Assembly (NCBI RefSeq): GCF_003018235.1
Contig: NZ_CP027437.1
From: Escherichia coli
GTDB lineage: Bacteria > Pseudomonadota > Gammaproteobacteria > Enterobacterales > Enterobacteriaceae
Length of the DNA: 64,000 nt
Strand: one strand, 5' to 3'
A model generated the notes under the pieces. It had not been told where the DNA came from. It was given only the letters and a program-made list of their open reading frames with translations, and made no database searches. A program made the translations under genes and the position numbers. Below are positions 3,450 to 18,168 of the stretch, in pieces (position 1 is the first letter of the stretch; each line of letters opens with the position of its first letter).

Positions 3450-3908
3450 CGTCTGCGCAGATCGTTAGATTCGGCAACATTGTAACTGGATAAGGAATAG
3501 AAAACCTTGGAATTTTAAGAAGAAACTGATTGATCGATTATTTAACGAGCGAACACATCCATACACCCCAGACGGGTACTACGACAAAGGCCATGAAATA
3601 AGTAACTTTTGCTTGAATGTTTTGCATTTCGCTTCCTTAGCAGTCCGATAAGTACTGTCTGCTCATCCAACCTAACGAATGTAGATCAGAATGACAAGTC
3701 TTTCGCGCTAATTTCAATTTGATATCTGTTCGTAAACATGATGGCGCGAAATATTACGCATGAAGTGCTTCTACATCAACATAAAAGTTACTTTTTTTGT
3801 GTTCACAGCATGTAAAGTAAAAGCCCCGCACGATGGCGAGGCTGTTAATTCTTTGTCGACCAACAAAGCTATGGCGACGATATCAGATTTACATGAAATA
3901 TAAGCGTT

Positions 3909-12317: not shown

Positions 12318-12386
12318 AATTGACTCCTTTAGTTTGAATTGACTGTTAAGTTGATTGCTTATTGTTAAAGAGCGTGAAATGGAAAT

Positions 12387-12617: not shown

Positions 12618-12721
12618 AACAACCTCCGTGGTTAATTTGAATCAAGATTAAAACCATGGTTGTTTTTAGTCAACAACCATTTTCGTTTGATGAAATAAAA
12701 CCTTGGTTGTACATTTGGACT
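12618..12721. promoter_or_regulatory. OR-like operator/promoter region between cro and cI
   Basis: Three palindromic sites built on AACCA/TGGTT half-sites (AACCATGGTT; ACAACCATT; AACCTTGGTTGT) in a 100-bp divergent intergenic region. Confidence 0.45.
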
Positions 12722-13411
12722 ATGAAAACAACACTCTCAGAAAGACTTAAAGAAGCCAGATTAGCGCGAGGCCTTACACAAAAGGCGCTTGGGGATTTGG
12801 TCGGGGTTAGCCAAGCAGCTATTCAGAAAATCGAAACAGGGAAAGCTAACCAAACAACTAAAATCGTGGAGATCGCGAACGCTTTGGGTGTGCGCGCAGA
12901 ATGGTTATCTTCTGGCGTTGGAAATATGTCAGACAGTACAGTGCAACCAATACAAACAACTGTCAGCCATTCCAAATACTTTAAGATTGACGTTCTTGAT
13001 ATCGAAGTGAGTGCCGGGCCGGGAGTCATCAACCGTGAGTTTGTAGAAGTTCTACGCTCGGTTGAGTACTCGTTTGACGATGCTCGTCACATGTTCGATG
13101 GTAGGAAGGCAGAAAATATCCGCATCATTAACGTACGCGGTGACAGCATGTCAGGAACGATTGAACCTGGTGATCTTCTATTCGTTGATATCACGGTTAA
13201 ATCTTTCGACGGTGATGGTATCTATGCGTTTCTGTACGACGACACAGCCCATGTAAAGCGCCTGCAAATGATGAAGGATAAGCTGCTGGTTATCTCTGAT
13301 AACAAAAGCTACTCACCGTGGGACCCGATCGAGAAAGATGAGATGAACCGGGTATTTATCTTCGGGAAAGTTATTGGGAGCATGCCGCAGACGTATAGGA
13401 AGCATGGATAG
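12722..13411 (+). CDS. cI: CI-type prophage repressor (HTH plus S24 LexA-like peptidase domain)
   Basis: N-terminal HTH (LTQKALGDLVGVSQAAIQKIE), Ala-Gly cleavage site, GDSM serine motif and downstream Lys; ATG with almost no leader. Confidence 0.8.
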   Translation: MKTTLSERLKEARLARGLTQKALGDLVGVSQAAIQKIETGKANQTTKIVEIANALGVRAEWLSSGVGNMSDSTVQPIQTTVSHSKYFKIDVLDIEVSAGPGVINREFVEVLRSVEYSFDDARHMFDGRKAENIRIINVRGDSMSGTIEPGDLLFVDITVKSFDGDGIYAFLYDDTAHVKRLQMMKDKLLVISDNKSYSPWDPIEKDEMNRVFIFGKVIGSMPQTYRKHG

Positions 13412-13491
13412 TACCAATTAAAAATTATCAACCGGGCATTGTGCTCATTCAGTAAAACAACTTAATTATTCATTTTAGAATGGAGAACTTA

Positions 13492-14553
13492 ATGGATACT
13501 TTAAAATATGAGAAATTCTCTGATTTTGATCACAATGACCCATTTTTTGACTCTTTAAAAAAAGATTATAAAGAGTTTCCTCTTTGGTTAGAAAAAAAAG
13601 CCAGAGAAGGAGAATCAGCTTATGTGCTCTATGATGACAAGCATAAAATCGAAGGTTTTATGTATCTAAAAGAAAATGATGATGCAAATGACATTAATCC
13701 AGCGCTCCCACCAGGACGTCATCTAAAGATAGGAACATTCAAATTTGAATCTAAAGGCACCCTTCGCGGACAACGATTTCTAAAAAAAGCGTTTGACCAT
13801 GCATTTTCATCAAAATCTGATGATATTTATGTTACTGTTTTCGACAAACACGTCCATCTAATAAAACTTTTCCAAACGTACGGATTTTACATTCATGGTG
13901 AAAAAGAAACACATAACGGGAAAGAGTTTGTATATGCGAGGTCTTTGCATGAGCCTTATGGTGATATTTTATTAGATTACCCTCGAATAATGACATCAAG
14001 GGCCAACAAATATTTACTGGCGATTTATCCCGAATATCACACTAGACTATTCCCTGATTCAAAACTTGTAAATGAATCACCAGATATTGTCAAAGATATA
14101 TCCCATGCTAACAGCATTCATAAAATTTACATATGTGGAATGCGTTCTGTGATGGGAATGAAAAGAGGAGATATCATTGTCATCTATAGAACCGGAGACA
14201 AAAAAGGGCCAGCTCGCTATCGTTCTGTAGCCAGTACATTATGTGTAGTTGAGAGCGTAAAAAATATTTCTGAATTTTTAAGCGAAGATAGTTTTGTAGA
14301 CTATTGTATTCGTTTTAGCGTATTTTCTGAAGATGAACTCAGAAAAATCTATAAAGAACGTCGATACCCTTTCATTATAAGATTCACATACAATCTGTCT
14401 TTGCCAAAGAGACCCAATCGTGCTATTTTAATAGATCATGTGGGGCTAAATGGTTCGCGTGCATTCCGATGGAGTCACTTTAAACTCACAAATGAGCAGT
14501 TCTTAAAGATCATCGAGTTAGGCAAGATAAATGAAAGTTTTATTATCCATTAA
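13492..14553 (+). CDS. hypothetical protein, first gene of rexAB-position operon
   Basis: 353 aa from ATG with GGAG 6 nt upstream (track ORF starts 13480); AT-rich; no family recognised; C-terminal half has PUA-like-looking motifs (GDIIVIY). Confidence 0.4.
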   Translation: MDTLKYEKFSDFDHNDPFFDSLKKDYKEFPLWLEKKAREGESAYVLYDDKHKIEGFMYLKENDDANDINPALPPGRHLKIGTFKFESKGTLRGQRFLKKAFDHAFSSKSDDIYVTVFDKHVHLIKLFQTYGFYIHGEKETHNGKEFVYARSLHEPYGDILLDYPRIMTSRANKYLLAIYPEYHTRLFPDSKLVNESPDIVKDISHANSIHKIYICGMRSVMGMKRGDIIVIYRTGDKKGPARYRSVASTLCVVESVKNISEFLSEDSFVDYCIRFSVFSEDELRKIYKERRYPFIIRFTYNLSLPKRPNRAILIDHVGLNGSRAFRWSHFKLTNEQFLKIIELGKINESFIIH

Positions 14554-14908
14554 GCCTGAGTTTGCAGAAAAAATATTGAACGGAACAAAGCGGTTCGAGT
14601 TTCGTAAAGGTATATTCAAAAATCCGCAAATTAGCACCGTTGTTATTTATGCCACGATGCCATTAGGTAAAGTTGTTGGTCAATTCCGTATTGAATCAAT
14701 ACTAAGTGACGAACCGGAATCTCTTTGGAAAAAGACGGAAAAACACGCAGGTATTTCTAAGCAATTTTATGACTCATATTATTCAGGTAGAGAAAAGGCC
14801 TACGCAATAAAAATTGGTGAAGTGGAAAGATATAAAGAACCAATTCCTATCTCTGCTCTAGGTAGTAATATTAAGCCACCACAATCATATCTTTACCTAC
14901 CTGCGTAA
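14531..14908 (+). CDS. ASCH/PUA-like domain protein
   Basis: 125 aa; MKVLLSIKPEFAEKILNGTKRFEFRK N-terminus resembles ASCH-domain consensus; overlaps upstream gene by 23 nt (translational coupling). Confidence 0.5.
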   Translation: MKVLLSIKPEFAEKILNGTKRFEFRKGIFKNPQISTVVIYATMPLGKVVGQFRIESILSDEPESLWKKTEKHAGISKQFYDSYYSGREKAYAIKIGEVERYKEPIPISALGSNIKPPQSYLYLPA

Positions 14909-14912
14909 GAAT

Positions 14913-14939
14913 CCCGGCCACCGTGCCGGGTTTTCTTTT
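14913..14939 (+). terminator. rho-independent terminator ending the cI operon
   Basis: Hairpin CCCGGCCACCGTGCCGGG followed by TTTTCTTTT, 5 nt after the ASCH gene stop. Confidence 0.7.
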
Positions 14940-15049
14940 ATCCCCTCCCCTCATCACATATACCGTTCAAAAAACCACCACAATCTCCCTTCAGTTATCG
15001 CTATGCGATGCAAGTCACAAAATAAACCCATCCTAAATACAACCAGTTA

Positions 15050-15112
15050 CATCTAAAACAACCAATAAAACAACTTTTGTTGTTGACGATAAAACAACTA
15101 TAGTTTTAAATA
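15050..15112 (+). promoter_or_regulatory. pL/OL-like promoter with operator repeats
   Basis: TTGACG-N17-TTAAAT overlapped by ACAACCA and AACAACTTTTGTTGTT palindromes sharing half-sites with the OR region. Confidence 0.45.
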
Positions 15113-15184
15113 AATTCATCGCAACAACACAACGATACGGCAACCACCTGATTCACCGTTGCGATGACCGCTTAGATCCGCAGC

Positions 15185-15595
15185 TTGAATTTCAGCAGGC
15201 TCCGGGGAGTGCGAGGGGTGAAGCGGACGCGTGAACGTCGGTGTGACCAGCTGAAATCAACTCAACACTTCATACCTCAGTCGCTTCAACGAGGCGGCTT
15301 AGTTATGACAACCGGCGGCCATCCACCGCCTGAATACGCGCAGAAGTCTCCATATGTTCAGCAGCCCAGCTTACGGGCAGGAGTTTTTATGGTTCATCAA
15401 CATTATGGAACGCAGACCGTTAATCGAGGTGCGGTCATGCCAGGAATGCTGGTCAAACACAAAGATGGTACCTGGACTGCATCAGCTAATTTACGCGGAC
15501 GGCTTTATCTGCATCGCGGCATCGAGCGCACTTATACCCGTGATTTGCTCGTGGAAGTTTTTCTCGACGGACGCGGTAACGGCCTGAATCACTAA
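15185..15595 (+). CDS. hypothetical early-left protein (Arg-rich N-terminus; true start uncertain)
   Basis: 136-aa ORF between pL-like promoter and gam; Arg-rich N-terminus reminiscent of N-type ARM but no boxA/boxB nut site found. Confidence 0.25.
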
Positions 15596-15670
15596 TCCCC
15601 TTTCCTGTTTTCCTAATCAGCCTGGCATTTCGCGGGCGATATTTTCACAGCCATTTTCAGGAGGTCAGCC

Positions 15671-15967
15671 ATGAACGCTTATTACATTCAGGATCGTCTT
15701 GAGGCTCAGAGCTGGGCGCGTCACTACCAGCAGATCGCCCGTGAAGAGAAAGAGGCAGAACTGGCAGACGACATGGAAAAAGGCCTGCCCCAGCACCTGT
15801 TTGAATCGCTATGCATCGATCATTTGCAACGCCACGGGGCCAGCAAAAAAGCCATTACCCGTGCGTTTGATGACGATGTTGAGTTTCAGGAGCGCATGGC
15901 AGAACACATCCAGTACATGGTTGAAACCATTGCTCACCACCAGGTTGATATTGATTCAGAGGTATAA
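15671..15967 (+). CDS. gam: Gam (RecBCD inhibitor), short form
   Basis: 98-aa product near-identical to recalled lambda GamS ([21 protein letters not shown]...). Confidence 0.85.
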
Positions 15968-18070: not shown

Positions 18071-18168
18071 ACATGAAAAGCAAAATCATCAGGGAGCTAC
18101 AGGCTCCTTTTTTATTATTCGCATTTACCCTCAAGCGTATTAACCAACAATTCAGGGATTAATGAAAG

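Follow-up and report, generated by a model that had tools for sequence, protein, structure and literature searches.

The window analysed here, i.e. the whole stretch of 64,000 nt of Escherichia coli DNA, covers a lambda-like prophage with its early-left region, and the transcription called leftward in lambda runs here on the + strand. The features of the region relevant to this work are the following:

12362-12373, - strand: exact rrn-type boxA GCUCUUUAACAA of the pR transcript, in the nutR position (cro on one side, the YdaT-like cII gene on the other)
12617-12387, - strand: cro (ORF list and Pfam)
3′ end at 13411, + strand: cI repressor, HTH plus S24 peptidase (ORF list and Pfam)
14913-14930, + strand: intrinsic-terminator-like hairpin of 6 G-C pairs followed by the T run TTTTCTTTTA
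15060-15111, + strand: oL/pL with AACAAC...GTTGTT half-sites, -35 motif TTGACG (15083-15088), 17-nt spacer and -10 motif TTAAAT (15106-15111)
15116-15259, + strand: element X, conserved structured leader RNA and candidate put-like cis antiterminator (alignment, covariance model, covariation)
15185-15595, + strand: ORF of 136 aa with TTG start and Arg/Lys-rich N-terminus, a mechanical ORF made up of kil and an unselected in-frame run through X and Y
15268-15388, + strand: element Y, conserved three-hairpin unit (comparative alignment)
15389-15595, + strand: kil, encoding a 68-aa cell-division (FtsZ) inhibitor of the Kil/KilR family, the true pL-proximal gene (profiles, PGAP, alignment)
15671-15967, + strand: gam (lambda Gam, Pfam PF06064, E 2e-64), with bet and exo next
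18091-18109, + strand: intrinsic-terminator-like hairpin of 8 pairs followed by TTTTATTATT, within the pL operon and upstream of xis and int

The order on the + strand is cI, two moron genes, a terminator, oL/pL, an untranslated leader of 275 nt, kil, gam, bet, exo and, further downstream, xis and int; gam being followed by bet and exo, the gene order kil-gam-bet-exo is fixed, as in lambda. The counterparts of the two moron genes in PhiR47_2 are annotated as the GevT toxin and the GevA (ASCH) antitoxin, and the hairpin at 14913-14930 closes the lysogenic transcript cI/GevT-like/ASCH (GevA-like) just before oL/pL. A palindrome of the AACAAC/GTTGTT type of oL is also present at oR, between cro and cI (12656-12680). 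The pL promoter of the window was read by eye from the sequence and is missing from the output of a consensus promoter scan; transcription from it is predicted to start at about 15117-15118. Heteroimmune relatives of the prophage have a differing operator region and are then 97-99% identical to it from 15118-15119 onward, and this boundary corresponds to the point where the TTGACG-17-TTAAAT promoter would begin transcription. A parallel promoter, TTGACG-17-TAAAGT-5-CATCG, precedes the Edwardsiella copy of X. The transcript initiated at pL must pass the hairpin at 18091-18109 to reach xis and int.

The pL-proximal gene and the long reading frame

The earlier note had described the first ORF after the pL-like promoter as a 136-aa frame at 15185-15595, which agrees with the ORF list (+ strand, TTG start), and had taken it for an unidentified gene in the position of N, proposing a profile search of the frame. 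The search revealed clear homology to the characterised protein Kil, with which the reading as an unknown gene in the N position fails. PHROG 294 ("Kil protein for bacterial septation inhibition") matches residues 60-136 of the ORF at profile positions 4-80 of 83 with an E value of 1.3e-38. The NCBIfam model NF008465 (KilR) aligns at positions 1-70 of 73 with residues 69-136, which are the whole length of Kil (residues 1-68; E 1.8e-17); since its score of 63.1 bits is below the curated cutoff of 92, Kil of the window should be considered a family relative and not the KilR equivalog. PGAP annotates at the equivalent place only a gene of 207 nt under the name "phage encoded cell division inhibitor protein". 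The precomputed Kil family assignment in Pfam is PF27398, an entry not contained in the local copy of Pfam, with which scans of the 136-, 96- and 77-aa frames gave no match.

Nine Kil homologues align from M1 and have an invariant HYGT motif in common. The ATG codon at 15389 is preceded by the Shine-Dalgarno sequence AGGAG at a spacing of 5 nt, and reading of the sequence revealed none before TTG 15185. In all eight diverged homologues compared (HK639, HK225, phi80, mEp237, SEN34, KO-TP1, Mulock and P13374) the upstream in-frame extension closes 9-54 nt before the kil start. The 34 distinct close variants of the window sequence all have an intact 68-aa kil, while a stop codon or a frameshift/indel interrupts the long ORF in 14 of them, and six of these also lose the alternative ATG at 15305. 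The conserved blocks of X and Y fall in different frames across lineages, the GAAGUCU motif of Y in as many as three, and the long ORF itself begins directly after a UAG within the conserved block GACCGCUUAGA. These independent comparisons show that coding selection does not act on the upstream 204 nt of the ORF. The Arg-rich N-terminus pointed out previously does exist in the translation, where it is Arg/Lys-rich, but it is not a selected protein sequence; it is a chance open frame over a G+C-rich structured RNA. The gene is almost certainly kil read too long, with a 68-aa Kil/KilR-family protein starting at 15389 (M69 of the ORF).

The opposite reading holds that the long ORF (136 aa, or 96 aa from ATG 15305) is real and encodes an N-like, Arg-rich RNA-binding peptide fused to Kil and acting as an antiterminator. 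Some gene callers and depositors do annotate products of 96, 128 or 139 aa at this place, and the translated N-terminus GVKRTRERR bears what we take to be a resemblance to the arginine-rich motifs of N proteins. It is contradicted by the missing Shine-Dalgarno sequence, by the frames closed in the diverged homologues and broken in the close variants (with ATG 15305 removed by some of the cuts), by the differing frames in which the X blocks and GAAGUCU are read, and by the finding of no N-family match in Pfam or PHROGs, the last of which confirms the earlier statement that the product has no clear similarity to lambda N. As far as sequence can refute such a reading it is already refuted, and we regard it as scarcely credible. 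The annotated "proteins" of 96-139 aa represent a systematic annotation trap, in which gene callers stretch kil through the G+C-rich leader.

The 68-aa Kil of the window can be aligned end to end with Kil of phi80, HK639, HK225 and mEp237, and it shares with the Kil/KilR family (Rac KilR, phi80 Kil) the small size of about 68-73 aa and the invariant motif M-x3-HYGT...PG...SA, but it is only 35-42% identical to Kil of phi80, HK639 and Stx phages (42% to the annotated phi80 Kil and 38% to HK639 Kil). Rac KilR is known to inhibit FtsZ ring formation or cell division on expression, and phi80 Kil is annotated as a cell-division inhibitor of the same kind; by analogy, Kil of the window, once made, would block division of the host cell. 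In its location immediately upstream of gam and the recombination genes of the pL operon the gene corresponds to lambda kil, and compared with other Kil systems it is distinguished by being the first gene after pL. To our knowledge no sequence relation to the short lambda Kil peptide is to be expected. Of the four lambda genes previously reported as missing before gam, cIII, ral and sieB are indeed absent from the ORF list for 14908-15671, whereas kil is present inside the long ORF. The kil gene itself is ordinary and already named by PGAP, and the value of the locus lies in what the false N-terminus covers.

A left operon without N and nut

The stretch between pL and kil contains no other ORF of at least 30 aa on the + strand besides a nested out-of-frame one. 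No boxA (CGCUCUUUA-like) was found within 2 mismatches in 15100-15400, in agreement with the earlier observation that nutL could not be recognised there. Two candidates for boxA in the leader were rejected: CGCUUAGA, the CGC of which is predicted to pair with GCG in all 23 aligned sequences, and CGCUUCAACGA, which is hairpin 1 of element Y and is not conserved in other Y types. The core of the HK022-type put sites, GGCGGGYUCAGGAWGARCGGCAAU, gave no match in the leader at up to 3 mismatches, and a BLAST comparison of the leader with HK022 showed no similarity. The Rfam 15 covariance models produced no match in 15100-15400 at E values up to 10; as they also miss HK639 putL, this outcome is of little weight for put-like RNAs.

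The leader occupies the place in the operon taken in lambda by nut (boxA and boxB), between pL and the first gene. Related phages sharing its first ~30 nt carry a hairpin and the boxA-like sequence GCUGCUCAUUAACAA, with a gene for an N-like protein in at least one case, whereas the pL leader of the window has no N gene, boxA or boxB. The boxA GCUCUUUAACAA in the nutR position of the pR transcript is the sole exact boxA match in the 64 kb, and no boxB-like hairpin was seen on reading the sequence after it. It is found only together with this particular cro module, and most X-carrying phages, Perceval among them, lack it, so this boxA is not part of the X system.

The same pL-leader-kil-gam arrangement has been found with 91-97% identity in at least 15 phage genome records, isolated phages propagated on named hosts among them; the records include PhiR47_2, Perceval (genus Bievrevirus), 4A7, Lambda_4C10, 1W, 3W, IdasGreatGrand and Turner. 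The segment 14900-15700 was found, over at least 80% of its length, in 2019 of 5426 complete E. coli genomes. The complete annotations of the viable relatives Perceval and PhiR47_2 list Q and no N. The absence of N and nut is therefore real, and this group of phages has neither on the left operon; the suggestion that early-left control in the prophage differs from that of lambda has proved right.

Two structured elements in the leader

The leader has been shown to consist of two RNA elements that are conserved in sequence and, by covariation, in secondary structure. The proximal one, X, begins at about +1 of pL and has the following parts, all on the + strand:

15116-15125 with 15158-15167, + strand: P0, a 10-bp helix enclosing the C/A-rich 5′ end
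15166-15176, + strand: invariant block GACCGCUUAGA (alignment)
15177-15206, + strand: variable stem P1 (alignment, covariation)
15190-15196 with 15251-15257, + strand: possible pseudoknot (complementarity)
15207-15219, + strand: invariant block GAGUGCGAGGGGU (alignment)
15220-15242, + strand: variable stem P2 (alignment, covariation)
15243-15250, + strand: invariant block GUGACCAG (alignment)

At least seven sequence types of X have the three invariant blocks in common, and their two stems differ in sequence and stay complementary. In an alignment of 23 sequences P1 is paired in 91% and P2 in 97%, with changes on both sides in 5 of the 6 pairs of each stem, counts that come from a covariance-model alignment and as such lean toward the model structure. 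The covariation score reached 0.395, compared with at most 0.10 in slid registers (pairing ~33%), and none of 500 shuffles attained the observed value. RNAalifold adds the pairs CGC-GCG and GGU-ACC within the blocks. Inspection of the aligned sequences by eye indicates that P2 has a purine-purine mismatch below a 4-bp stem and, in most types, a GUGAGAG-like loop. Three different sequence versions (AUUUCAG/CUGAAAU, UAUCAG/CUGAUA and AUCUCAA/UUGAGAU) maintain complementarity between the P1 apical loop and the 6-11 nt downstream of GUGACCAG, which suggests a pseudoknot; types D and E lack it, and in one type it is weak. A helix similar to P0 can be drawn for the copies of Edwardsiella and Trabulsiella. 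The inspection of the leader for RNA structure, advised in the earlier note, had a divided outcome: single-sequence folding of the window leader gave z values of -0.45 and -0.50 and did not stand out from shuffles, and comparative covariation shows a conserved structured RNA at the nut position, something the first reading was in no position to see.

A search with the gapped pattern of the X blocks identified 30 viral contigs and prophages of Trabulsiella odontotermitis, Edwardsiella piscicida, E. anguillarum and Pectobacterium fontis. X is located downstream of a cI-like gene in each representative and, in the four genome prophages, no more than ~30-60 nt after a promoter-like site; the heteroimmune E. 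coli phages have it in common from about +1. No differences in the invariant blocks occur from Escherichia to Pectobacterium. The window version of X was detected in 2209 of the 5426 complete E. coli genomes, where the leader is 95-100% identical, and no annotated feature lies under X at the eight E. coli genome matches listed. The covariance model of X finds one copy per locus, in the window a single match at 15152-15259 with 112.5 bits, and none in the HK022, HK639, phi80 and HK225 loci or in N-type leaders. No second, pR-side copy was found in the 12.6 kb of the pR operon in the window; a 15-nt match of 15179-15193 to 12396-12382 overlaps the cro stop codon, has an E value of 2 and was taken as chance. 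We consider it very probable that X is a functional structured RNA.

The distal element, Y, extends to the kil start and is composed of:

15276-15302, + strand: hairpin 1, preceded by CAUACC and followed by UUAUGA with AUG at 15305-15307 (alignment)
15314-15330, + strand: hairpin 2, GGCGGCCAUCCACCGCC (alignment)
15343-15349, + strand: GAAGUCU (alignment)
15364-15378, + strand: hairpin 3 (alignment)
15379-15383, + strand: the kil Shine-Dalgarno sequence AGGAG (alignment)

Its consensus reads CAUACC, hairpin 1, UUAUGA, a linker of 3-9 nt, hairpin 2 of the form GGCGGC(C/U)AUCCACCGC(C/U), a variable stretch, GAAGUCU, GUUC, hairpin 3, and the Shine-Dalgarno sequence with the next gene. Phage HK225 shares the 42 nt at 15269-15310 with 97.6% identity, and phi80, HK639 and KO-TP1 have similar sequences. 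Hairpin 1 is represented by 49 distinct sequences belonging to at least 10 stem families, all of which fold, mostly with 8-10 bp and a UUy-N3-GAG apex. Hairpin 2 is nearly invariant, and its sequence is kept despite frame shifts in the linker and in lineages that have no AUG.

Of 188 distinct contexts of Y, 137 have an intrinsic terminator directly before it, and a kil homologue follows within 2.5 kb (median 434 nt) in 104 of the 149 contexts with enough flank; the gene upstream of Y is variable and is N only in phi80-like loci. In the window Y has no upstream terminator and starts 10 nt after X. Y is a separate module that normally heads the kil gene block after a terminator; here recombination would have joined it to X, with neither genes nor a terminator in between.

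The homologue of Y in phi80 is the sequence that directly follows N and tL1A (M11919, "t-L1 regulatory signal terminator"; JX871397, tL1A/tL1B), hairpin 2 starts where the tL1 feature of the 1980s record starts, and some phages have seven U in a row after hairpin 2, in the manner of an intrinsic terminator. However, hairpin 2 lacks the U run in the window and in most variants, the window has no terminator upstream, and a plain terminator would leave the conserved loop CCAUCCA and hairpin 1 unexplained. Y may control translation or stability of the next gene or may be a terminator-related signal. A leader peptide MTTGGHPPP with a polyproline stall was rejected as the main constraint on Y, since hairpin 2 is in frame in only about 7 of 14 linker length classes and two lineages have no AUG, which most others do possess; the mini-ORF may be a contributing constraint. 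No convincing signals of a promoter, a Chi site or an antisense-RNA gene were seen on reading Y, and prophage small RNAs of the AgvB/AsxR type were dismissed as the identity of the leader because they lie at PR′, not at pL.

Neither X nor Y was found described in the literature searched, in which work on put-like RNAs concerns HK022 and HK639 only and the invariant strings turn up as unrelated primers; X may have been listed earlier among new put-like RNAs. The literature on Perceval and GevT/GevA yielded nothing relevant.

X as a candidate antiterminator and the alternatives

Position and analogy make X a candidate for an N-independent, put-like cis antiterminator, a reading for and against which the scales seem to us almost evenly loaded. 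X would fold at the extreme 5′ end of the pL transcript and act in cis on the transcribing RNA polymerase, like put of HK022 and HK639. The polymerase would be enabled to pass Rho-dependent termination in the long untranslated C/A-rich leader as well as intrinsic terminators downstream, i.e. the one at 18091 in the window and the strong one before Y in other X phages, so that kil, gam, red, xis and int would be expressed in the absence of N protein.

In HK022, putL is situated shortly after pL and needs no protein factors to act (PMC9378689). Like the put RNAs (HK022 putL/putR and HK639 putL), X lies at the 5′ end of the transcript made from pL in N-less lambdoid phages and is built of two adjacent stem-loop domains with conserved internal loops, in X supported by covariation; as in HK639, by its annotation, there is a single copy in the left operon. 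X differs from put in having no sequence similarity to it, other conserved blocks, a length of ~95-145 nt compared with ~70 nt, and possibly a pseudoknot and the enclosing helix P0. The most direct link between them is provided by one locus (L114), in which the leader closely matches the HK639 pL leader over its first ~59 nt and its last ~55 nt and has in the centre a homologue of 15163-15256 of the window. It fills exactly the slot of the HK639 put core, the counterpart segment in HK639 being the core of the annotated "putL-like antiterminator RNA". Functional equivalence is the simplest explanation of such a swap in an HK639-type leader, and blocks that are identical across genera fit a highly conserved host partner such as RNA polymerase.

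In ten loci, representing eight distinct sequences, pL and X are followed by intervening DNA and then by a strong intrinsic terminator and Y. The intervening DNA contains ORFs of at least 38 aa in all of them, in two (L156 and L288) only two short doubtful ones, and by eye no N-like ORF was seen between X and the terminator. In both loci checked, L114 and L288, kil is downstream of Y; the Trabulsiella prophage has an antisense gene between its X and kil. A trans-acting factor may be encoded elsewhere in the X-carrying phages.

Antitermination has to be weighed against other roles for a conserved leader RNA. X might be a 5′ stabiliser, a riboswitch or attenuator, or might bind a host or phage protein (Nus factors, Hfq, ProQ) or sequester a host small RNA such as GcvB, the last by way of the C/A-rich stretch 15122-15148. 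Structure and conservation show that X has a function and not which one, and invariant single-stranded blocks would suit any conserved ligand; CAACA repeats are abundant in the 5′ region, and the dissimilarity of X and put is also in keeping with a role of this kind. The downstream genes, however, vary among X types, which ties X to pL and to no gene in particular, and both the exact replacement of the put core and the combination of terminators to be passed with the lack of N in X phages speak against such a role, which we judge unlikely while taking it seriously. It is improbable that the leader is a functionless deletion scar, left when an ancestor lost nutL, N and tL1, with a pL operon that is poorly expressed or needs no antitermination. 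Lambda can grow lytically without red and gam, Y is preceded by N or other genes and a terminator in phi80 and other phages, and the X-Y junction of the window at TTCATACC looks like a recombination or deletion joint. A scar does not account for the conservation of X across four genera with compensatory pair changes and invariant blocks, nor for a leader maintained in 2209 E. coli genomes and at least 15 phage genome records; moreover, other phages have X upstream of genes and a strong terminator, again without N, and in the window an intrinsic terminator precedes xis and int.

We attach still less weight to an rrn-like antitermination depending on Nus factors only and nucleated by boxA, to which X would be unrelated, and hold it to be very improbable. 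BoxA alone supports anti-Rho activity in rrn operons, in agreement with published work, and an exact rrn-type boxA does occupy the nutR position of the pR transcript. Against it, the pL leader is devoid of boxA within 2 mismatches, the boxA-like CGCUUAGA has its CGC engaged in predicted pairing in 23 of 23 sequences, and the pR-side boxA accompanies only this cro module and is missing from most X phages, Perceval included. Taking all this into account, we favour, as probable rather than firm, the combination of an over-called kil, X as a cis antiterminator and Y as a separate module.

Protein-free, RNA-mediated processive antitermination is known from one sequence family, put of HK022 and HK639, and is explained by one cryo-EM structure. 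Mutations in the zinc-binding domain of beta' (rpoC), for instance Y75N, block put. More tentatively, and with rather less confidence than we would need to call it probable, we propose that X represents a second, sequence-unrelated class of nascent-RNA antiterminators that would act directly on E. coli RNA polymerase and replace N/nut in very common lambda-like prophages (~41% of complete E. coli genomes), and that Y is a further undescribed regulatory RNA gating the toxic kil module. A second class with a different fold, if true, would mean that phages reached this solution more than once. X as an antiterminator would likewise offer a second RNA-polymerase complex for comparison with put and would explain the early-left expression of kil, gam, red, xis and int in very common N-less lambda-like prophages.

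Apart from the left operon, relatives in the N-less X prophage group carry cargo such as sitABCD.

Leaders and non-coding elements of the early-left region

The first ~30 nt of the pL leader in the window are common to the pL leaders of other phages, at loci L118, L163, L176 and L223 (e.g. L223:6974-7060), in which they are followed by a short hairpin, in which GAC and GUC flank a tetraloop or pentaloop, and then by a boxA-like sequence, GCUGCUCAUUAACAA. The hairpin and the boxA-like sequence of these four leaders probably constitute nutL, with the hairpin preceding boxA. L176 encodes an N-like protein whose C-terminal end reads ...LYAAGYRNSKDSVTAR.

Downstream of the leader element a conserved stretch of ~300 nt, located between element X (the structured leader RNA just after pL) or nutL and the next gene, has been found in L273, L277, L283, L287 and L118. 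Its translation yields recurring pseudo-peptides (MAKCFGLADGYQLVGEVMAHQGDDGLPCFIVGSQ...), and the stretch may represent an additional conserved non-coding RNA. A recurring cassette composed of a small hairpin and a Shine-Dalgarno sequence is often present 5′ of early-left genes in many loci (e.g. L223:7270-7305; window 15356-15388); one example is uuucuCCCGCaucaGCGGGcaacgacagaggg-AUG, which in translation appears as 'KAFLPHQRVTTEGKAM'. In element Y, the conserved three-hairpin leader unit upstream of kil, hairpin 3 looks like a cassette of this type.

In phi80 element Y is directly followed by an open reading frame:

L007 (phi80) about 3580-3790 and L135:1503-1712: unannotated ORF of ~70 aa, directly 3′ of element Y

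Its product (MSDLELGLKIYALWFVGTFLL...) is likely a membrane protein; the sole annotation across this stretch of phi80 is the terminator tL1B.

The pR side and the genes around cI

Three features were recorded in this part of the window:

12362-12373, - strand: exact rrn-type boxA (GCUCUUUAACAA) in the nutR position, flanked by cro and the YdaT-like cII gene
12656-13411, + strand: mechanically called cI ORF of 251 aa, with its start inside the oR palindrome ATGGTTGTT...AACAACCAT
13480-14908, + strand: two genes 3′ of cI

The boxA was found together with this cro module only, and no boxB hairpin was seen after it. An rrn-type boxA at the nutR position belongs here to a phage without N. The repressor annotated in relatives comprises 229 aa and begins at a later start, MKTTLSERL.

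The product of the first gene 3′ of cI is 357 aa long, and its N-terminal part is acetyltransferase-like (PHROG 6345); the second gene, which overlaps the first, encodes a 125-aa ASCH-domain protein. The counterpart pair in phage PhiR47_2 is annotated as GevT toxin and GevA antitoxin; a literature search on GevT/GevA found no paper. The same slot is occupied in other relatives by a Ser/Thr kinase and a PP2C phosphatase, or by different cargo.

Cargo of PhiR47_2 and Perceval

The relatives PhiR47_2 (L137) and Perceval (L004) carry the iron/manganese transporter sitABCD adjoining the tail-fibre genes, as well as DLP12-like cargo in the nin region (emrE and the recombinase ybcK).
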